Shown: piece by piece, positions 11,811 to 64,000 of the stretch | Position numbering within the stretch: the first letter of the stretch is position 1 | Layout: each line of letters begins with the position of its first letter | Assembly (NCBI GenBank): GCA_903932535.1 | Contig: CAIZGR010000666.1 | Location: 798-64,797 of the forward strand | DNA: 64,000 bases | Origin: an uncultured Hyphomicrobiales bacterium | GTDB lineage: Bacteria > Pseudomonadota > Alphaproteobacteria > Rhizobiales > Beijerinckiaceae | Direction of reading: 5' to 3' | Translations under genes and position numbers: made by a program | The notes under the pieces: model-generated | What the model was told of the DNA's origin: nothing | Databases searched by the model: none | What the model saw: only the letters and a program-made list of their open reading frames with translations

Positions 11811-12763
11811 GTCGGCACCCCGTACTTGATCCGGTCGTCGACGGCCTTGTCGGCCCACTCCGCGAGCTCGATGTGCTGCGCGTCCTCCCGGTCGCCGCCC
11901 GGACCAGGCCACCGGCCGCTTTTCAGGCACGTCGCCATCGCGTCGAGCGCCATCCGGTTCGCGCGCTCCCCGCGGTCGAGCGAGTTGTCCTTGAGCGTCA
12001 CCACGCGGACGCAGAACGGCGGGGTCTTCTCCGCGAAGATCAGCGTCGCCGTCGAAAATGGCAGGCCGATTTCGCGCGCGCCCTGCCGCATCAACGCGAG
12101 CTGCTGGTAGTAGCCGCGCTCATAGATCGCCTTCTGGAGGTCCCGCCACAGCACCGACGTCGTCGTCTTGATGTCGACGTAGTCGCCCGAGTCGAGCGGG
12201 ATGGAGTCGGGCCGCCACTTGACCCAGAGGCCCGTGTCCTTGTCCTTGAAGAACCCGGACCGCTCGATCATCCCGTTCAGCGCGCCGGCGCGGACGATGG
12301 GGTTGCGGCCGAGCTCCTCGGCTATCCCCCGCAACACCGCCAGGTCGGCGATCGTGAGCACGGCCTTGCCCTCGTGCCGGCGCGCGGCGTGCCATTTGCG
12401 GCAGTCGGCCGCGTTGTTGTTCCAGGCCTTGATCTCGCCGCCGTCGGCCTCGTATTCGAGCGGCTGGACGGCGAACAGCCTGGAGAAGAACTTCTCGCCC
12501 AGCATCAGGTGGTGGACGGCCCGGCCGATGGTGAAGTGGGCCTTCTCCTTCTCGGGCAGGACCCGTTTCGGGTTGCCGGACCACTCGACGTAGAAGTGCG
12601 CCGGGCTCTCGCTGAAAATCTTGCGCAGGCCCGACGACGACACGCTCGGCCCGTCGCAGATGTTCGCCGAGTGGTAGAGGTCGAGGCTGATACCCTCGTA
12701 GAGCCCGGGGTTGGTGATGGTTTTACCGTCCCATTTGACGGATTTTATGACGGGAATCTTCAT
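11807..12763 (-). CDS. PD-(D/E)XK exonuclease (RecE/YqaJ-type partner of RecT)
   Basis: DSGDYVDIKTT is a D..(D/E)xK signature. Size and position upstream of recT fit. Start is at ATG 12763 (MKIPVIK), with an ATGA overlap. Confidence 0.75.
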   Translation of the reverse strand: MKIPVIKSVKWDGKTITNPGLYEGISLDLYHSANICDGPSVSSSGLRKIFSESPAHFYVEWSGNPKRVLPEKEKAHFTIGRAVHHLMLGEKFFSRLFAVQPLEYEADGGEIKAWNNNAADCRKWHAARRHEGKAVLTIADLAVLRGIAEELGRNPIVRAGALNGMIERSGFFKDKDTGLWVKWRPDSIPLDSGDYVDIKTTTSVLWRDLQKAIYERGYYQQLALMRQGAREIGLPFSTATLIFAEKTPPFCVRVVTLKDNSLDRGERANRMALDAMATCLKSGRWPGPGGDREDAQHIELAEWADKAVDDRIKYGVPT

Positions 12764-13044
12764 GCGGTCGCTTCCTCGGTCGTTGCCGGGGTCGTTGCCC
12801 CCGAGCGCCATTTGACTTTGAGCCGTTGGGCAGCTGCCTTCGCTTCAGGCGCGGCCCCGCGCGTTGCGGTCGCCAGCAGCGCGGCGAGCGCAGGCACCAG
12901 CGCCGGCTGGATCGTCGGCCGGGTCGCCTGCCCGGCCCGGTCCAGGAACGCGCCGCTCAGCAGCACGCCGCAGCGTGCGCACCGGCGCTGTCCGCGCGGG
13001 TTCTTGCGGACGCGGGGCTTCCCGCATTTCGGGCAGGCGCCCAT
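12760..13044 (-). CDS. Small zinc-ribbon protein (94 aa)
   Basis: MGACPKCGKP..CARCG gives two CxxC pairs. Strong GC3 bias in this frame. The start overlaps the upstream stop by 1 nt (TGATG). Confidence 0.5.
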   Translation of the reverse strand: MGACPKCGKPRVRKNPRGQRRCARCGVLLSGAFLDRAGQATRPTIQPALVPALAALLATATRGAAPEAKAAAQRLKVKWRSGATTPATTEEATA

Positions 13045-13427
13045 CAGAACGGCACCGATTCGCGCTCGCTGACCTTCGGCTGCGCGGCCTCGCCAAGAAT
13101 GAACTCGACGTCGACCACGTCGCCGTCTTTCAGTTCGGGCCAATGTTCGGTGATATAGCGGTGCGCCGTCTTGAACGTCCGGTCGTCCCACGCATAGGGA
13201 TCGGTCGTCGCTTGGCGCGCGTCGCCGTCGAGGCGCGTCAGCAAGATCATCGGAGTGCCATCGACCGGGTAGCCGCATCGACGGAGCAAGTATCGCTGCG
13301 CTTCTCGATGTTCGGATCGAGCGGAATTGTCGGATGACGCGGTAGTGCGATCAAGCGGAACCATGCTGACCGCCAGCGCGGCGACGAACGTCATCCGGTC
13401 GCGAATCTCTAACGCCTTGGCCTGCAT
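13044..13427 (-). CDS. Hypothetical protein (127 aa), first gene of the long leftward operon
   Basis: ORF track. ATG preceded by GGAGACGAACCG. Confidence 0.65.
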   Translation of the reverse strand: MQAKALEIRDRMTFVAALAVSMVPLDRTTASSDNSARSEHREAQRYLLRRCGYPVDGTPMILLTRLDGDARQATTDPYAWDDRTFKTAHRYITEHWPELKDGDVVDVEFILGEAAQPKVSERESVPF

Positions 13428-14165
13428 CGGTTCGTCTCCTGGCTGAATCCGGGTGCCGAGCTACACCCTTGCGTCCCACGCTCGGCACCCTTCATCGGTT
13501 ATGCGATCCCGCGAAGCGGGAGAGCAGGGCCGCATGGCCCGAGGCTCCTACCATTGACCGCCGCTCCTGTGGGACGAGGGCACCAGGGGACGGCGGTCAA
13601 TCTCGAATCGTCTCGCGGCGAGCGGGCCGGGCGCTGCTCCGGCTGACGGCAGTGTTTCTCGCCCCGAAGGGCTTAGGCAATTACCGCTCCCATTGGGCGT
13701 GGGCTTGCGCGTTTCCCAGCCTCCGCTCCCCGCGAGACGAACGGCGTCCCCGGCCGGTTTCCCGGCCGGGTCCACCTTCACCACTTGGTCATCCGAACCG
13801 CCGCAGGTGACGCGGGCACCGGGTAGGTGCTGGCAGCCTCGGCAAGCCGCGGGAGCGCGAACGCTTTCCGGAGTTCGCCTCCCAGAACCCGCTGCCGGAA
13901 TGCCGAACCGGCGACGGGGAACCCATATTGTTTCCGTCCTCATGGGCAAGCTGACGATTCCCTCGCGGGAATTTGAATTAGGCCGCTTCGGAGGAAGGGG
14001 CGCTTTGACCTCTCGATCAAGATTAAGCATCTGGTCCCCTCCCTCCTAGGCGGCGCTCCGCGGATCCGGCCGTCCTTGACGTCGTCCAGCTCGCGCATGC
14101 GAGCTGGAGGCGGCTTGTTTCCCCTGATGCTCAGGTCGTAGGGGCATATACACCGCCGGATGCTG
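13428..14165 (-). ncRNA. Candidate large structured non-coding RNA (family unknown)
   Basis: 738 bp with no ORF showing the local GC3 bias. Contains perfect 9-11 bp helices. On the minus strand the loops read GAAA, GCGA and UUCG (twice). Both flanking operons are transcribed in the same direction. Strand and boundaries are tentative. Confidence 0.35.
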
Positions 14166-14636
14166 TTAGCTGGACTTACCCTCGATCTGGGCGTTGCTCA
14201 TGTTGGCGATTGCCAGGGTCTTGATCTGGTCCTCGGGCACGTCGGCGAAGACCGTGGCCTTGAGCTCCGCCCGCATCTTCTTTTTCTCGGCAGACCGGAT
14301 CACGTTCAACATCTCGCCTTCCTTGGCGACCAGCGCCTCGTAGGCGCGGCGGTCGATCTTGCCAATCACCCAATCGACGGGGGTCTGGTCGGCGAGGTCG
14401 CACTCGACGTCGACGCCCACCACCTTGACCGTGGTCATGTTGTGCCGGGTGTTCGACGGAACGACCAGGTAGTCGCCGAGGGCGATTGTGTGGTCCAGGG
14501 TCTTGAAGAACGTGCGCTTGACGGTGCCCGGCTTGTCGGCCGGCTCGAAGTCGTAGATCGCCAAAAGGCCGAGGACGTTTTCGTTGGCGACGAAAATCTT
14601 CCGGCTGTTGTGGACGTTGAGGGTGGTGCTGCTCAC
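14166..14636 (-). CDS. Hypothetical protein (156 aa)
   Basis: Protein-like part of ORF 14166..14813. GTG 14636 is preceded by GAAGGAAA. Confidence 0.6.
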   Translation of the reverse strand: MSSTTLNVHNSRKIFVANENVLGLLAIYDFEPADKPGTVKRTFFKTLDHTIALGDYLVVPSNTRHNMTTVKVVGVDVECDLADQTPVDWVIGKIDRRAYEALVAKEGEMLNVIRSAEKKKMRAELKATVFADVPEDQIKTLAIANMSNAQIEGKSS

Positions 14637-14656
14637 GGTCGGGTTTCCTTCTTCGG

Positions 14657-15061
14657 TTAGGCACCCTGCTGGGCGCGGTTGAGTGTCGAGTGTTCGCGGT
14701 TGGGGTCCGGCCGTGACACGCCGGCCTCCCCGAGTTCTTTTTCGATCCGGTCGGCGATGGCGTCGCGGAAGCGACCGGCCTCTAGTCGTTCGCTGATCGC
14801 GTCGTGCAGCCACCCGTAGCTTGCGCGGTCGATCTCGACGGGCTTCTGCTCGTAGCTGTAGATGGTGTTGCCGGAGATCGCGTCGTCGTTCATCTCACGC
14901 GCGGTGCGCCGGCGGTAACCGTCAAGCGAGATCGACCGGACGGTCCACTCGCCGTCGTCGTCGTAGCTGATGGTGGCTTCGCCGTTCACCAGCCCGGCCT
15001 CGAACCCGAGGTCGACGACCAGCGGCAGCTCCTCGAAGGCGAAGGCGAACTGGTTGCTCAT
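14657..15061 (-). CDS. Hypothetical protein (134 aa)
   Basis: Internal ATG (MSNQFAFAFEEL) of ORF 14657..15160. ATGA overlap with the upstream stop. Confidence 0.6.
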   Translation of the reverse strand: MSNQFAFAFEELPLVVDLGFEAGLVNGEATISYDDDGEWTVRSISLDGYRRRTAREMNDDAISGNTIYSYEQKPVEIDRASYGWLHDAISERLEAGRFRDAIADRIEKELGEAGVSRPDPNREHSTLNRAQQGA

Positions 15062-15249
15062 GATCGCTCTCCGGGTTGCGGGCGGGTCTCGAAAATAACG
15101 CCGGCCATGGCGGCGCGCAGCGCGTCGAATTCTTCGGTCCTGACAACGAAGGCGCCGCACTTTGCGAACGTGGTTTCCGGCCGGGCGGCGGCGAAAAGCG
15201 AACAGTGAACGTGGCTGCCCGCGGTGTGGTGCAGAACCTTGAACATCAT
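15058..15249 (-). CDS. Hypothetical protein (63 aa)
   Basis: ORF track. ATGA overlaps at both ends. Confidence 0.45.
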   Translation of the reverse strand: MMFKVLHHTAGSHVHCSLFAAARPETTFAKCGAFVVRTEEFDALRAAMAGVIFETRPQPGERS

Positions 15250-15635
15250 CGTGCAGCCCCCGGCGCCAGCGCCCGGTCGGCGAGTTCGCGGCCGGTCAGC
15301 AGGATGCCGCCGTCGCAGCGGGCCATGAAGTCTCGGTCGGTGTGGTTGGTCTGCATGTCATCAACGACCAAGGCCCCCGCCGCGTAGCAGCGCGATATGT
15401 CGGCGAAGGGACCGACGGAGACGCCGCCGCGCATGGTGCGCGAACCGCGCGGGCCGTAGAAAATCTCGAGGGAATAGCCGGACCGCTCTTGGCCGCTCGC
15501 GGCGGTGACGAGCGCGATGCTGCCGACGACCAAGGCGGACCCAAAGATGGCGGCGAACCAAGCGATGAGGGAAAGGCGTCGGAGGTCCCGGTTGATCGGG
15601 CGGTCGTCGGCCTGTGGATCGTTAGCAACGCTCAT
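15246..15635 (-). CDS. Membrane-anchored hypothetical protein (129 aa)
   Basis: One TM segment (LSLIAWFAAIFGSALVVGSIALV). First gene left of the divergent control region. Confidence 0.6.
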   Translation of the reverse strand: MSVANDPQADDRPINRDLRRLSLIAWFAAIFGSALVVGSIALVTAASGQERSGYSLEIFYGPRGSRTMRGGVSVGPFADISRCYAAGALVVDDMQTNHTDRDFMARCDGGILLTGRELADRALAPGAAR

Positions 15636-15799
15636 GGCGCGGGCATCCGTGACGCCGGGGTTCCGACGCGAATCGACTATAGGCTGTCACAAGGCGGCAC
15701 GTCTACCCCCTCACCGGGGAGTTTTCCCCGGTCTCGTAGCCTGTGGAAACCACCCCGATAGGCTTGTGCATTGGGCCTGGGCATGATGCTGTTGCGTTC
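15636..15799. promoter_or_regulatory. Divergent early control region
   Basis: Candidate leftward promoter TAGACG-N18-TATAGT (reverse complement of 15700-15705 and 15676-15681). Repeated half-sites ATAGGCTGTCACA (15679-15691) and ATAGGCTTGTGCA (15758-15770). Palindrome at 15714-15731. Confidence 0.4.
15714..15731 (+). promoter_or_regulatory. Palindrome CCGGGGA-GTTT-TCCCCGG (copy 1 of 3)
   Basis: Perfect 7-bp inverted repeat. Near-identical copies lie in the two other divergent intergenic regions (28961-28976 and 30298-30313). Confidence 0.45.
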
Positions 15800-16072
15800 A
15801 TGATTCGCGCCGCCCCCCTCATGAGAGCCGCCATGCTGCGCGCCGCCCGCGCCTACGCGAAGGCCGCCGGCGTGCCGCTGCGGACGGTGTCCAGGCGGGC
15901 CTACGGCGACTCCAGGTTCTTCGCCAGCCTGGCGCGCGGCAGCTCGTTCTCGGCCCCGAACTACGACAAGATCATGGGATGGTTAGCCGACCCGGCGCGC
16001 TGGCCGGACGGCGCCGTTTCCGGGGCCGTCGTCGATCCGTTCGCCGCCGTCGAGAAGGAGTCCGCGCCGTGA
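15800..16072 (+). CDS. Small putative DNA-binding protein (Cro-position, 90 aa)
   Basis: Internal ATG of ORF 15743..16072. GVPLRTVSRRAYGDSRFFASL looks HTH-like. Strong GC3 bias. Confidence 0.5.
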   Translation: MIRAAPLMRAAMLRAARAYAKAAGVPLRTVSRRAYGDSRFFASLARGSSFSAPNYDKIMGWLADPARWPDGAVSGAVVDPFAAVEKESAP

Positions 16073-16581
16073 CCGCGCCGCAAGTCAGCGTTCCCCTCGA
16101 TCAGTTCGCGCGCCTCAAGCAACTTTGGGCGGCCGGTCTCCCGGCGTTCGACGTAGGCGTCGAGCTCGGACTCGAGGGCGACCCGTCCCAGATCCGCGAG
16201 GCGGTCCTTCGCGCGATCGAGGAAGCGGCCCGGCCGTCGTCGCCCAAGACGAAGAAGACGCGCTCCAACTTGCCGGCGCGGCTGCGCACGCCCGCGGTCG
16301 AGGAGGACGACGTCGATCCCCGGTTCGAGTCCGACGGCTTCGACGGCACGCCCGACGAGCGCGACCTGCAGATCGACGAGGCCCAGCGCCGGTCGCTGCT
16401 CGGTCCGCCGCACAGCCGACACCCGGCGCGCGCCGCGTCGGAATGCAGTTGGCCCGTCGGCGAACCCCGCGACCCCGGGTTCTTCTATTGCGGCGCCGCG
16501 ACGTTCGCCGACGAACTCTATTGCCTGCGCCACTGCAGGCTCGCCTACAACGGACGCTCGCACCGCCGGCGCGCGGCGTAA
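16069..16581 (+). CDS. gcrA: GcrA-like cell-cycle regulator homologue
   Basis: N-terminal LKQLWAAGL and C-terminal CSWPVGEP..FFYCG....YCLRHCRLAY are GcrA signatures. GTG 16069 overlaps the upstream stop (GTGA) and GAGAAGGAG lies upstream. Confidence 0.8.
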   Translation: MTAPQVSVPLDQFARLKQLWAAGLPAFDVGVELGLEGDPSQIREAVLRAIEEAARPSSPKTKKTRSNLPARLRTPAVEEDDVDPRFESDGFDGTPDERDLQIDEAQRRSLLGPPHSRHPARAASECSWPVGEPRDPGFFYCGAATFADELYCLRHCRLAYNGRSHRRRAA

Positions 16582-16607
16582 CTTCAACCCCCACGGAGGA
16601 ACGACCG

Positions 16608-17105
16608 ATGGCGAAGACGAGAACCGCGAAACCGAAGAACAAGAAGCCAGCCGACAGAACCGACAAGGTCAAGCCGAGCGAGGTGATGAAGATGCCGCCC
16701 GAGGGCACCGTGCGCTCGGTCGCGGCCGACATCGCGTCGACCAGGAAGGCCACCGGCCGGCTGACCGAGGAGCTCAAGGACATCATCGCCGACGCGAAGA
16801 AGGACAAGGGCATCCACCCGGGCTCGCTCAAGCGCGTCGAGGCCTGGGTCGCCAAGGCGAAGAAGACCGACCGCGGCCTGGCGGCCGTCGCCACCGAGCT
16901 CGCTCACCTCGACTACTACCGCGACGTGCTGGGCCTGGACGACATGATCAAGAAGCAGGGCCAGATGTTCGCTCGAGTCGAGGCCGGCGAAACCGAGGAT
17001 GATGGTCAAGCGGATCTCCCCGGCACCACCAAGGCCGGTCCGAAGTTCGGCGACGCCGTCGCCAGGCTCGCGGACGCGACCGGCGCCAGCGCGGCCGGCG
17101 AGTGA
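16608..17105 (+). CDS. Hypothetical protein (165 aa), weak DUF2312/GapR-like pattern
   Basis: ATG preceded by GGAGGAACGACCG. LTEELKDIIADAKKDKGIHPGSLKRVEAWVAKAKKTD loosely resembles the DUF2312 helix pair. Confidence 0.55.
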   Translation: MAKTRTAKPKNKKPADRTDKVKPSEVMKMPPEGTVRSVAADIASTRKATGRLTEELKDIIADAKKDKGIHPGSLKRVEAWVAKAKKTDRGLAAVATELAHLDYYRDVLGLDDMIKKQGQMFARVEAGETEDDGQADLPGTTKAGPKFGDAVARLADATGASAAGE

Positions 17106-26474: not shown

Positions 26475-28103
26475 TCACGATTGAAGGTCGAGGACGCGGG
26501 CGCTGGTCTTCACCGGCTCGGGCTTGCCGTCGGCCTGGGTGGCGGGGCGGGCCCGGCCGGCGGCCCAGGCGCGGAGCTTTTCGATCTTCTCCTTGGCGGT
26601 CTTGCCGAGCGGGACGACCGTCGCGGCCGCGGCGACCAGGTCCTCGGTCTCGATCTCCCGGGCGCCGTCGGCGAAGGCCGCGAACATGGCGTCCGGGACG
26701 ATGGCGGCGATCTCGGAGCCGGTGAAGCCGTCGCAGCCGGCGGCCACGGTCTCGAGTCGGATGCCGCTGCGGTCCAGGGAATCGAGCAGCTTGCCGCGGC
26801 CGTGCGCCCGCAGGGCCGTCGCCAGGACCGAGACCCGTTCCGTCGCGTTCGGGAGGTCGACCCACCAGACCTCGTCGAAGCGGCCCTTGCGCAGCAGCTC
26901 GGGCGGGAGCCCCTCGACGTCGTTGGCCGTCGCGATGACGAAGGCCTCCCCGGACCGTTCCTGCATCCAGGAGAGCACGGCCCCGAGCGCGTCGGAGGAG
27001 ACGCCGCCGTCGGCCGAACCTGAGGTCGCGCCCTGGAGCGCCTTCTCGATCTCGTCGATCCAGACGACGCAGCGGCCGATGGCTTCGATGACCCGGAAGG
27101 CCTTGCGCAGGTTGCCCTCCGATTCGCCCACGAACTTCGACTTGAGCGCGCCGAGGTCGAGCCGCAGGAGCGGGACGCCCCAGGCCGTGGAGATGGCCTT
27201 CGCGATCAGGCTCTTGCCGCAGCCGGGGACGCCGACGAGCAGCGCGCCCTTCGGCGACGGTAGGCCGTAGGCGCGGGCCTCCGGGGTGTAGGCGGAGCTG
27301 CGCGACGTCAACCAGGTCTTGAGGTTTTCGAGACCGCCGACCGAGGCGAGGCCGCCCGGAATCGGGTCGTACCATTCGAGGACGCGCTCCCGGGCGACGA
27401 CCCGCTTCTTCTCCTTCGCGACGGTCGCCGGGTCGATGCGCCGGAGCTGGACGAGCGAGCGCGCGTAGCAGGAGGCGGCTTCTTCGCCGCTCAGGCCGAC
27501 GGCCGCGTCGATCGCCGCGGCGCGCTGGCCGTTCGGCGCCGCCGTGGTCTTCAGGTCGGCCGGCAGCGACTCGATGGCGGCGTCGAGGATGGCGGCGATC
27601 TCGGCGCGGTCCGGAAGCGGCCACTCGATCACGGTCGCGTGGCCCGCGAGCTCCGGCGGGACGTCGCCCGAAGGAGAGACGACGACGATGGCCTGCGCGT
27701 TCTCTCGCGGCGTGCCCGGGAGGGAGCGGGCGAGGTTGCGGACCTGGCGGAGCGTGGTCGCGCCGGCCGGGCCCGAGAGCCACGACGGGAGGTCGCGCAT
27801 GATCCAGACGCCGCGGCCGCCGGACTGCGCGGCCTGCGCGCGCTCGCGGATGACGTTCAGCGCGTCGCCGGGGTCGTTGCTGGCCGGCACGCCCTTGACG
27901 GCGGTCCCGTCGAGGTTGGCGAGGCCCTGGCCGACGTCCCAGGTGATCGGAGAGTAGGCGGCGGAGGCCGCCGCCTGAAACAGGTAACGCTCGACGCGGG
28001 CTTCTTCGCGGGTGACGATCCAGAGGAGCGGGTTGCGGGCGCGCAGGAGCGCCGACACGTCGTCGGCGAGTTCCTGGCTCTTGGTCTTCGGTGCGGTGGT
28101 CAC
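26475..28103 (-). CDS. Classical-clade AAA+ ATPase (FtsH/Cdc48-like module) with unique about 270-aa N-terminal region
   Basis: Walker A GVPGCGKS, Walker B VVWIDEIE and second region of homology ATANDVEGLPPELLRKGRFD. GTG start preceded by AAGGAA. Confidence 0.9.
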   Translation of the reverse strand: MTTAPKTKSQELADDVSALLRARNPLLWIVTREEARVERYLFQAAASAAYSPITWDVGQGLANLDGTAVKGVPASNDPGDALNVIRERAQAAQSGGRGVWIMRDLPSWLSGPAGATTLRQVRNLARSLPGTPRENAQAIVVVSPSGDVPPELAGHATVIEWPLPDRAEIAAILDAAIESLPADLKTTAAPNGQRAAAIDAAVGLSGEEAASCYARSLVQLRRIDPATVAKEKKRVVARERVLEWYDPIPGGLASVGGLENLKTWLTSRSSAYTPEARAYGLPSPKGALLVGVPGCGKSLIAKAISTAWGVPLLRLDLGALKSKFVGESEGNLRKAFRVIEAIGRCVVWIDEIEKALQGATSGSADGGVSSDALGAVLSWMQERSGEAFVIATANDVEGLPPELLRKGRFDEVWWVDLPNATERVSVLATALRAHGRGKLLDSLDRSGIRLETVAAGCDGFTGSEIAAIVPDAMFAAFADGAREIETEDLVAAAATVVPLGKTAKEKIEKLRAWAAGRARPATQADGKPEPVKTSARVLDLQS

Positions 28104-28136: not shown

Positions 28137-28303
28137 TCAGTGGCAGTGAACGGTCGACGACGAGTGCCGGTGGCATTTGTCGGGGTGAGCGCGGGCGACG
28201 CCGACCGCGAGGACGGTCAGCAGCGCGAAGCCGATCAGCGCGGCGGCGAGTTGCCACAGGCGGCGGCGCAGGAGCGGCGGGAGCAGGGGACGTCGGGTCT
28301 TCA
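28137..28303 (-). CDS. Frame-broken small membrane peptide (22-codon ATG frame plus TM/Cys-His segment in the -1 frame)
   Basis: ATG 28303 sits behind a perfect GGAGAAGAACCG and stops at 28235. The -1 frame has no start codon but has GC3 bias and encodes LWQLAAALIGFALLTVLAVGVARAHPDKCHRHSSSTVHCH, ending with a stop at 28137. The switch is at the C-run 28259-28262. Confidence 0.25.
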
Positions 28304-28369
28304 TCGGTTCTTCTCCTCGGTGCGTGATCGCACCCCGTCGCCGGGCCGAAGCCCGGCGCTAGGTTGCGG
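28304..28369 (-). repeat. Conserved intercistronic element, copy B
   Basis: Stop-to-ATG spacer homologous to 25231-25302. Hairpins at 28318-28333 (GGTGCG/CGCACC) and 28339-28356 (7 bp, UUCG loop on the minus strand). Confidence 0.5.
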
Positions 28370-63733: not shown

Positions 63734-63770
63734 AAAGAACCGACCGACGCGCCCCTGTGGAGAAGAACCG

Positions 63771-64000
63771 ATGGCAAACGGCGACCCAACTCCGCTCGAT
63801 CCTACAGCGATACAGAACACCGGCTGGATGAGCGACGTGCAGCGCGTTTTGGCGCTCATCCTGATCGTGTGCATTGGCGTGGCCATGCTGTTGGCGACCT
63901 TCCGGGTGGTTTGGTCCGGTGACTCTGCCCCTGACTCGGTCGCGGACATGGCGAAAACGCTGCAGGCGGCCATGGTCAACATGGGACTCATCGCGCTCGG
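63771..64000 (+). CDS. Holin/membrane protein candidate, 3' partial
   Basis: ATG behind a perfect GGAGAAGAACCG. TM segment VLALILIVCIGVAMLLATF. Runs off the window end. Confidence 0.5.
   Translation, partial: MANGDPTPLDPTAIQNTGWMSDVQRVLALILIVCIGVAMLLATFRVVWSGDSAPDSVADMAKTLQAAMVNMGLIAL

Follow-up and report, generated by a model that had tools for sequence, protein, structure and literature searches.

Comparative sequence evidence for a structured RNA in a leftward phage early operon from an alphaproteobacterial contig

Within a window of 64,000 nt (the whole stretch of DNA analysed, from contig CAIZGR010000666.1 of an uncultured Hyphomicrobiales bacterium), the 738-nt tract between two minus-strand genes of a leftward prophage early operon appears to be a genuine structured RNA encoded on the minus strand. 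The original prediction had placed a large structured RNA here, and this central claim was borne out by covariation, a loop-loop pseudoknot and a non-coding pattern of substitutions. The RNA is modular, with a widely kept core of ~180 nt and further domains confined to one clade, rather than one monolithic 738-nt fold everywhere. Positions within the tract (p) were counted on the minus strand, such that the window coordinate is 14166 - p. All relatives are metagenomic, and individual loci are referred to by L numbers. The predicted elements, in 5' to 3' order of the RNA, are as follows.

13428..14165, minus strand: whole structured tract, intercistronic in the leftward early operon; recognized by the lack of codon periodicity, the gap left by gene callers, the z-score of its minimum free energy (MFE) and its relatives
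14109..14157, minus strand: D1, closing helix 14152-14157/14109-14114 round an inner hairpin; kept in L119, L121 and L089
14086..14107, minus strand: H2, 9-10-bp stem with a C-AUGC-G tip; the second C-AUGC-G hairpin besides HP2
13982..14054, minus strand: D3, outer 4-bp helix and 11-bp helix, enclosing a conserved ATG (14028-14030)
13920..13972, minus strand: D4, two hairpins including one capped by GCGA (13958-13971); window and L121 only
13741..13919, minus strand: D5, hairpins at 13888-13919, 13851-13883, 13833-13850 and 13749-13770
13608..13740, minus strand: D6, 18-bp closing helix 13723-13740/13608-13625 round about 97 nt, with a UUCG hairpin at 13661-13672
13429-13601 (tract positions 565-737), minus strand: core SL1-HP2-HP3-HP4, about 180 nt, at the 3' end of the tract
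13553..13601, minus strand: SL1, 12-bp outer stem, internal loop, inner stem CCUG/CAGG and loop 13570-13583
13527..13540, minus strand: HP2, GGGCC-AUGC-GGCCC, sharing the C-AUKC-G tip of H2; compensatory changes seen at each of its 6 pairs in the family
13508..13520, minus strand: HP3, a hairpin present in the individual fold of every relative, with a sequence and length that vary and cannot be aligned
13443..13498, minus strand: HP4, 11-bp stem 13480-13490/13451-13461, helix P4a 13495-13498/13443-13446 and loop 13462-13479

Covariation and loop pairing in the predicted RNA

Covariation had been named in the original prediction as a check on the structure, and compensatory base changes were found in every domain. 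In MAFFT alignments, the 5' region (four sequences) contained 40 pairs that were 98.1% paired, 15 of them compensatory, and D4-D5 (three sequences) contained 74 pairs that were 94.7% paired, 16 of them compensatory. For both regions the result was 0/500 in shuffles, and slid controls gave 42-57% and 31-48%, respectively. For the core, also aligned by MAFFT from four sequences, 15 of the 45 pairs showed a compensatory change. MAFFT was unreliable over the whole core for divergent members, and alignments fitted to covariance models (CMs) were used for these instead. For HP4 and P4a (CM R1, alignment A15), 97.3% of positions were paired and all 15 of 15 pairs were compensatory (0/500 shuffles, slid controls 41-56%). 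The corresponding values for SL1 and HP2 were 97.7% and 18/22 pairs (0/500 shuffles, slid controls 36-46%), bringing the core stems overall to compensatory changes in 33/37 pairs. It counts against the structural reading that these deepest alignments, being CM-fitted, lean towards the modelled structure; the MAFFT-based counts and the loop-permutation test described next are independent of CM fitting.

The loops of SL1 and HP4 were predicted to pair with each other over two 6-nt segments, K1 (UGCCCU with AGGGCG) and K2 (GUCCCA with UGGGAC). Strands K1 and K2 lie in the SL1 loop, and K2' (UGGGAC) and K1' (AGGGUG in the window) in the HP4 loop. Standard pairs were present at 205/216 positions in 18 loop pairs. 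When loop partners were permuted, the number fell to 187.4 +/- 2.6 with a maximum of 198, and none of 5000 permutations reached the observed 205. Six positions of the pseudoknot showed alternative Watson-Crick states. For K2 the variants were GUCCUA:UAGGAC, GCCUCA:UGAGGC, GUCUCA:UGAGAC, GCCCUA:UAGGGC and ACCCCA:UGGGGU, and for K1 they were UGACCU:AGGUCG, UGUCCU:AGGACG and UGCCUU:AAGGCG.

SL1, which CM R2 matched in 21 places, has an invariant inner stem CCUG/CAGG and a loop of 14 nt in the window and 13-16 nt across the family, and its outer stem ends in an almost invariant U.G pair (20/21 rows). In L119 and L121, 3 bp have been lost from both arms of SL1 in register, a coordinated deletion. 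The HP2 loop was AUGC or AUUC in all members shown. In 15 of 18 members the first bases of the HP4 loop are GU; its last four are CGAA in most members and UGUA or CGUA in three. The ribosome-binding site (RBS) and start codon of the next gene come after HP4. The original prediction had read a 28-codon upstream open reading frame (ORF) from the ATG at 13495, at the 5' side of HP4. This ATG is not conserved, being GCC in L087 and GAC in L089, and its bases form the 5' strand of the covarying helix P4a, leaving the upstream ORF unsupported.

The extra covarying domains D1-D6 occupy about 560 nt 5' of the core and were found only in the window and its closest relatives. Helices 1-2, in D1, were 97-100% paired with compensatory changes, and the D1 motif CCUACGACCUGAGCAUCAGGG (14122-14142) was invariant save for one change each in L121 and L089. 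In H2, compared among the window, L119, L121 and L089, pairing was 100% with compensatory changes in 7/9 pairs and an invariant AUGC loop. The 11-bp helix of D3 is formed by GGAGGGAGGGG (14036-14046) and CCCCUUCCUCC (13990-14000); helices 4-5, in this domain, showed 95-100% pairing, numerous G.U pairs and replacements of G-C by C-G and A-U. The evidence for D4-D6 comes from three sequences. D4 is missing from L119 as a 52-column gap, and in L121 its GCGA loop is replaced by GAAA, retaining the GNRA type. Within D5, a 41-nt block (13777-13817) was identical in the window, L119 and L121, in surroundings that have diverged by about 22%. The closing helix of D6 corresponds to an inverted repeat (I1) that is 94% complementary. 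A helix in this position was present in L089 with at least three compensatory events, reduced in L087 and absent from L119 and L121; no usable alignment was obtained for the interior of D6. Indels between relatives add or remove entire hairpins.

Two minor observations concern these domains. The 41-nt block of D5, read on the minus strand, was predicted to form an irregular hairpin. Hammerhead-like strings were noticed in D1 and had no support from Rfam.

Folding energy, strand and coding status

The minus-strand tract had an MFE of -382.9 kcal/mol; its z-score was -7.1 when 20 shuffled sequences served as the control and -6.0 with 60 dinucleotide shuffles. For comparison, z-scores of +1.8 to -2.4 were obtained for 19 stretches of equal length (738 nt) elsewhere in the 64 kb. 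Helix density was thus well above the genomic background and that of shuffled sequence, the latter a control that the original prediction had set for itself. The homologous tracts of L119, L121, L089 and L087 gave z = -5.4 to -6.8. The perfect helices that had been described earlier were all in place, and three of the four tetraloops quoted with them, GAAA (13758-61), GCGA (13963-66) and UUCG (13665-68), were loops of the MFE structure. The fourth, UUCG at 13858-13861, is part of a helix in the MFE structure as well as in the comparative one and had to be dropped.

These energies also bear on the notion of a functionless, GC-rich palindromic spacer, whether resembling a repetitive extragenic palindrome (REP) or a miniature inverted-repeat transposable element (MITE) or simply junk, that folds by composition alone. 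The G+C content is indeed high, and the middle and 3' thirds of the tract folded alone gave modest z-scores of -1.3 and -1.5. However, compensatory changes are pervasive, and divergence is slower than at neighbouring third codon positions: the tract differs from L119/L121 at 22% of aligned positions, compared to 32-37% for third codon positions of the adjacent gene. In addition, position and architecture are kept across phages in which the flanking protein is only 29-47% identical. A REP or MITE-like repeat was rejected as the tract is single copy in the 64-kb window, where blastn returned only the tract itself and CMs R1 and R2 gave no convincing second copy. A spacer of this kind is barely credible.

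The strand of the active molecule was addressed through G.U pairs, consensus energies and loops. The consensus energy of the 5' region was -55.3 kcal/mol on the operon (minus) strand and -44.6 kcal/mol on the opposite strand, on which the G.U pairs of helix D3 turn into A.C mismatches. Predicted pairs included 52 G.U and 8 A.C, a count biased by the structures having been predicted on the minus strand. The conserved loops (AUGC; GU...CGAA) are not self-complementary and are strand-asymmetric. From these three features the active molecule is predicted to be the minus-strand RNA rather than duplex DNA, in agreement with the minus-strand reading first proposed for the tract.

An element acting as DNA, for instance an origin of replication, a site of recombination or packaging, or clustered operator palindromes, could in principle mimic RNA helices, and the many perfect inverted repeats and the adjoining recombination genes would fit it. 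The plus strand also beats its shuffles, with z = -4.6 to -4.7. But palindromes bound by proteins keep their sequence, whereas these stems vary freely with their complementarity kept; the loops are conserved, not the stems, and in a strand-asymmetric manner; and frequent G.U pairs are confined to one strand. The covariation of two distant loops would be meaningless in duplex DNA. Moreover, the tract contains no iterons and lacks the alphaproteobacterial SOS box GTTC-N7-GTTC. A DNA element was accordingly regarded as very unlikely.

The tract showed none of the codon signature of its neighbours. GC content by codon phase was flat over about 13420-14100, with a difference between the highest and lowest of the three phases of 0.02-0.18 compared to 0.3-0.6 in the flanking genes. 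GC at third codon positions (GC3) was 0.90-0.96 in the gene on the 14166 side and reaches about 0.8 in the one that ends at 13427. In three public metagenome contigs with 100% identity to the region, independent gene calling left an identical 738-nt gap. The other junctions of the operon are overlaps of 1-4 nt or gaps of at most 55 nt. The tract is not literally ORF-free, since ORFs of 113-160 codons are present, although all were judged non-coding.

In pairwise comparisons with relatives, substitutions in the flanking genes were distributed over the three codon positions as 26/13/49, 19/15/55 and 20/14/41, and indels were mostly in frame. The same counts for the tract, in the frame of its own ORF, were 15/16/20, 20/19/24 and 9/12/10, and its many indels of 1, 2, 5 and 16 nt break the frame. 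The 160-codon ORF (13548-14030, minus strand) had no homologue among 5.8 billion proteins, and six tract ORFs compared with Pfam gave nothing significant, the sub-threshold E-values of 0.047 and 0.17 both belonging to a 49-aa (amino acid) ORF.

A candidate start of translation was the conserved GGAGGGG-N6-ATG at 14030. This sequence, resembling a Shine-Dalgarno (SD) followed by ATG, is kept in the window, L119, L121, L088 and L089, in all of which the ORF from that ATG is open for 102-160 codons, and gene callers called it in some contigs. A coding or decayed gene, or a small translated ORF starting here, is nevertheless even less likely than a DNA element. The codon positions are flat and the indels frame-breaking, peptides from this ATG are unrelated between conserved nucleotide blocks and stop at different positions among relatives, L087 is without this part, and there is no homologue in the protein collection and no Pfam domain. 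The SD-like string is itself one strand of a covarying helix, and the 41-nt block shows no synonymous variation. The decayed-gene check proposed at the outset thus had a clear outcome, and the tract is best taken as neither a coding nor a decayed gene. Covariation, the non-coding pattern and the strand evidence together contradict the DNA-site, coding and junk readings alike.

Genomic setting and family range

The neighbouring features that define the position of the RNA are listed below.

14166..14636, minus strand: 156-aa gene, upstream of the RNA; GC3 0.90-0.96; synteny by tblastn in L087, L089, L091, L119 and L121
13425..13440, minus strand: translation-initiation region (TIR) of the next gene (AGGAGACGAACCGAUG), 10 nt 3' of the core; kept in all close relatives
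13044..13427, minus strand: 127-aa gene, downstream; an insertion here that separates the core from the Zn-ribbon gene
about 12760-13043, minus strand: 94-aa Zn-ribbon gene; follows the core directly in most family members

Further operon genes past the Zn-ribbon gene encode a DUF3799/exonuclease VIII-like nuclease, RecT, DUF6166 and a protein with a LexA-type DNA-binding domain. The sole sigma-70-like promoter match within 13000-17000 was at 15676-15705 (minus strand), immediately before the gene that opens the leftward operon, and no promoter was found inside 13428-14165. Since both flanking genes are also on the minus strand, the RNA is presumed to be co-transcribed with the leftward early operon. 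No terminator-like site was found on either strand inside 13428-14165. The scan of 13000-17000 gave four such sites, about the shuffle expectation, including one at 13122-13106 inside the 127-aa gene. The promoter-like site sits opposite a divergent GcrA-like/methyltransferase gene cluster, as seen in the identical contig L001.

The 127-aa gene was a misleading anchor for relatives. As the anchor it gave 83 loci (72 IMG/VR and 11 genome) with a protein identity of at most 58%, none of which carried the element by blastn, nhmmer or CM. A very narrow family was suggested at first by this result and was overturned once the 156-aa gene served as anchor. Long gaps upstream of 127-aa homologues, picked up in a crude GC3 survey, proved to be unrelated sequences. 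Relatives of the 127-aa protein at 66-80% identity carry parts of the element (L087, L088/L089, L090 and L091); L091 has the core alone, at 185 nt, and L087 has no ATG-14030 part. Homologues of the 156-aa protein at 79-86% identity led to L119/L120 and L121, which share tract positions 6-421 at 76-79% together with a variant core.

A profile-based scan with the 156-aa family alignment added 25 more IMG/VR loci at 29-47% identity. With the CMs at E <= 0.01, SL1+HP2 was detected in 14 of these and HP4 in 12. The detected cores in the IMG/VR loci start 1-12 nt past the stop codon of the 156-aa-family gene, the exceptions being L127 and L142, which have tandem SL1 units. At its other end, the core extends up to the next start codon, mostly that of the Zn-ribbon gene, or comes to within a few nt of it in several loci (e.g. 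L124, L127, L128, L131 and L138). A Zn-ribbon homologue comes next in many of the 25 loci, with exonuclease and RecT homologues further downstream in several, and loci without a CM match but with a Zn-ribbon match have a gap of 166-226 nt at the same place. In all relatives, tblastn places a gene of the 156-aa family ahead of the element. The core, now known from at least 18 distinct phage or prophage sequences, appears to fill the whole space between the 156-aa-family gene and the Zn-ribbon/exonuclease/RecT module in a wide set of phages.

The window copy, at 738 nt, was the largest member found, and in its lineage D1-D6 have been added 5' of the core and the 127-aa gene inserted 3' of it. 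The core can evidently duplicate parts of itself, and duplication is a possible route to the expanded form in the window. In L090 (25-70), the 3' arm of SL1 (CGACCTTCAATCC...) is tandemly triplicated between SL1 and HP2. Tandem SL1/HP2-like units lie past the 156-aa-family gene in L142 (2955-3029 and 3133-3203) and L127 (2939-3012 and 3104-3170).

Blastn of the tract against phage and plasmid collections gave no match. Exact pattern scans for the SL1 loop (viral and metagenome contigs), the HP4 loop, the D5 block and the D1 motif returned chance coding matches or nothing.

Little could be gleaned on the flanking proteins, for which sequence searches of Pfam, PHROGs, PADLOC and the PDB were uninformative. 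The 127-aa protein family has about 1000 metagenomic members, carries no Pfam or PHROG assignment and typically heads RecT/ERF recombination modules. The position of its gene relative to the RNA is not fixed: in L142 (2046-2366) it lies upstream of the 156-aa gene, and in most loci the core and the Zn-ribbon gene do not have it between them. The initiation string GGAGAAGAACCGATG (AGGAGACGAACCGATG at 13425-13440) recurs before several unrelated phage genes, with copies at 63759-63773 (plus strand), 28302-28317 (minus strand) and 13425-13440 (minus strand) and at about 2183-2198 in L113. This recurrence accounts for the 'second AACCGATG' that had been reported at the 3' end of the tract.

Proposed function and comparison with known RNAs

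The best explanation for the element, with about an even chance of being correct, is a structured RNA acting in cis on the polycistronic early transcript. Such an RNA might determine how strongly the recombination module downstream is expressed compared to the genes upstream, by influencing either the initiation or coupling of translation at the RBS next to it, or the processing or stability of the mRNA. Serving as a structured insulator, or as an antiterminator similar to put or EAR, it might also allow polymerase to cross a long stretch that is not translated and to escape Rho-dependent polarity. The two functions are compatible and could plausibly operate side by side. In most members where the core was detected, 1-12 nt separate the upstream stop codon from SL1. 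Ribosomes terminating there would therefore invade SL1 and could break the SL1-HP4 pseudoknot, which would offer a way to couple, or to set the ratio of, expression of the downstream Zn-ribbon and recombination genes. The 738-nt untranslated version would have to escape Rho, and dense structure or a put/EAR-like activity would achieve that. Proteins might bind at the C-AUKC-G-tipped hairpins (H2 and HP2) and at the nucleotides that are unpaired and invariant.

Several observations weigh against action in cis. The choice of cis over trans is drawn from position only. The downstream SD/TIR had a probability of being unpaired of 0.30-0.61 and, in 5/7 sequences, was somewhat less paired than the remainder of the RNA. 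RNAalifold placed a 4-bp anti-SD helix there, without covariation, and a simple SD-masking model is disfavoured by a TIR that is not consistently paired. No boxA-like or terminator element was consistently associated with the RNA; a boxA-like GCUCU after HP2 occurs in only some members and lies in a helix. Finally, strict linkage to the 156-aa gene combined with a variable downstream gene (127-aa or Zn-ribbon) would fit a partnership between protein and RNA equally well.

A possible alternative, though one we consider distinctly short of probable, is a stand-alone stable non-coding RNA that is processed from the operon transcript and acts in trans or as a ribonucleoprotein (RNP) with the 156-aa or Zn-ribbon protein. 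The tract would then be a new 'ornate' phage RNA in the style of GOLLD and ROOL, possibly self-associating via its complementary loops. Synteny with the 156-aa family is strict over 29-100% protein identity with a variable downstream gene, the SD is not sequestered, and, as in other large RNAs, there are multiple domains with lineage-specific ones at the periphery. The invariant unpaired block (13777-13817) and the repeated C-AUKC-G hairpins also suggest ligand or protein contacts, and known large phage RNAs use kissing loops for their assembly (PMC12286853). Nevertheless, neither a promoter nor a terminator of its own was found for the tract, and the RNA abuts both neighbouring cistrons almost exactly in several members. 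The 156-aa protein has no recognizable RNA-binding family, and its AlphaFold model, of low confidence (pLDDT 53), gave no Foldseek match. Homology to GOLLD, ROOL or any Rfam family was likewise not detected.

More speculatively, and with a rather low probability in our estimation, the RNA may represent a new phage RNA class working with the 156-aa protein, the Zn-ribbon protein or both, as an RNP switch, or an RNA-only antiterminator that gates the RecT/exonuclease module. If so, the 738-nt copy of the window would be a naturally 'ornate' expansion of GOLLD/ROOL size.

Large multi-domain RNAs of bacteria and phages that are backed by covariation are rare, comprising a handful of classes mostly from low-GC or well-sampled lineages. 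The present RNA is a previously uncatalogued family within the phage-borne structured RNAs. A search of the tract with Rfam 15 at E <= 10 gave four chance hairpin matches of 15-19 bits, compared to cut-offs of 48-70, and no Rfam 15 family was found in 34 related loci. Membership in GOLLD, ROOL, HEARO, OLE or raiA, the classes to be checked according to the original prediction, is not supported by any Rfam 15 match at gathering score; group I and II introns, RNase P, tmRNA, 6S, ribozymes and riboswitches in Rfam 15 also failed to reach gathering score in the tract. No description of the element was found in the literature.

The comparison with GOLLD and ROOL originally drawn on size was apt as regards size and modularity, without a family match. 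These RNAs and the present one share a length of several hundred nt, multiple domains, carriage by phages or prophages, lineage-variable peripheral domains and long-range loop-loop pairing. In contrast, GOLLD and ROOL are usually stand-alone genes, often near tRNAs, whereas this RNA is wedged between cistrons of one operon, has most members at only about 180 nt and belongs to a high-GC alphaproteobacterial host clade.

HK022 put and Bacillus EAR are structured RNAs of phage early or long operons that act in cis on the transcribing polymerase, EAR being intercistronic and pseudoknotted. However, put is about 70 nt long with two stem-loops just after a promoter. No resemblance in sequence or fold was seen to either RNA, and EAR, an Rfam family, gave no match to the tract. 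Terminators downstream of this RNA were not identified beyond chance-level sites. Leaders with kissing loops (cobalamin L5-L13, lysine P2-P3 and ribosomal-protein operon leaders) are alike in having a compact loop-loop fold directly 5' of the RBS. Unlike riboswitch-type leaders, this RNA has no Rfam riboswitch match, and its RBS lies outside the kissing hairpin and is not consistently sequestered. A likeness to lambda nut/boxB is seen in two short hairpins of the early transcript that have an invariant loop (H2 and HP2, each with the C-AUKC-G tip), although loop sequence and size differ from the GNRA-like pentaloops of boxB and neither a conserved boxA nor an N-like protein was identified.

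The family adds a well-defined ~180-nt core with a 12-bp covarying loop-loop pseudoknot to the known RNAs, at a fixed genomic address between a conserved 156-aa gene and the recombination module of temperate phages of soil Alphaproteobacteria. Its members, naturally ranging in size from about 180 to 738 nt, provide a ready-made deletion series. The family is also an attractive target for structure determination and a concrete handle on early and recombination gene regulation in these phages. The two CMs built here could seed a database-wide search.

Two further RNAs were noted elsewhere in the window. The only match to Rfam 15 at the gathering threshold (cmscan, whole window) was the mmgR sRNA (Rfam suhB, RF00519), matched over its full length at 498-567 on the plus strand with 50.7 bits against a gathering score of 41. 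Its presence identifies the host as an alphaproteobacterium, and at its left end the window is probably chromosomal DNA of the host. ARAGORN placed a tRNA-Leu(CAG) at 27458-27552 (plus strand) with an unusually long span of 95 nt, which could be an attachment-site tRNA or a phage tRNA.

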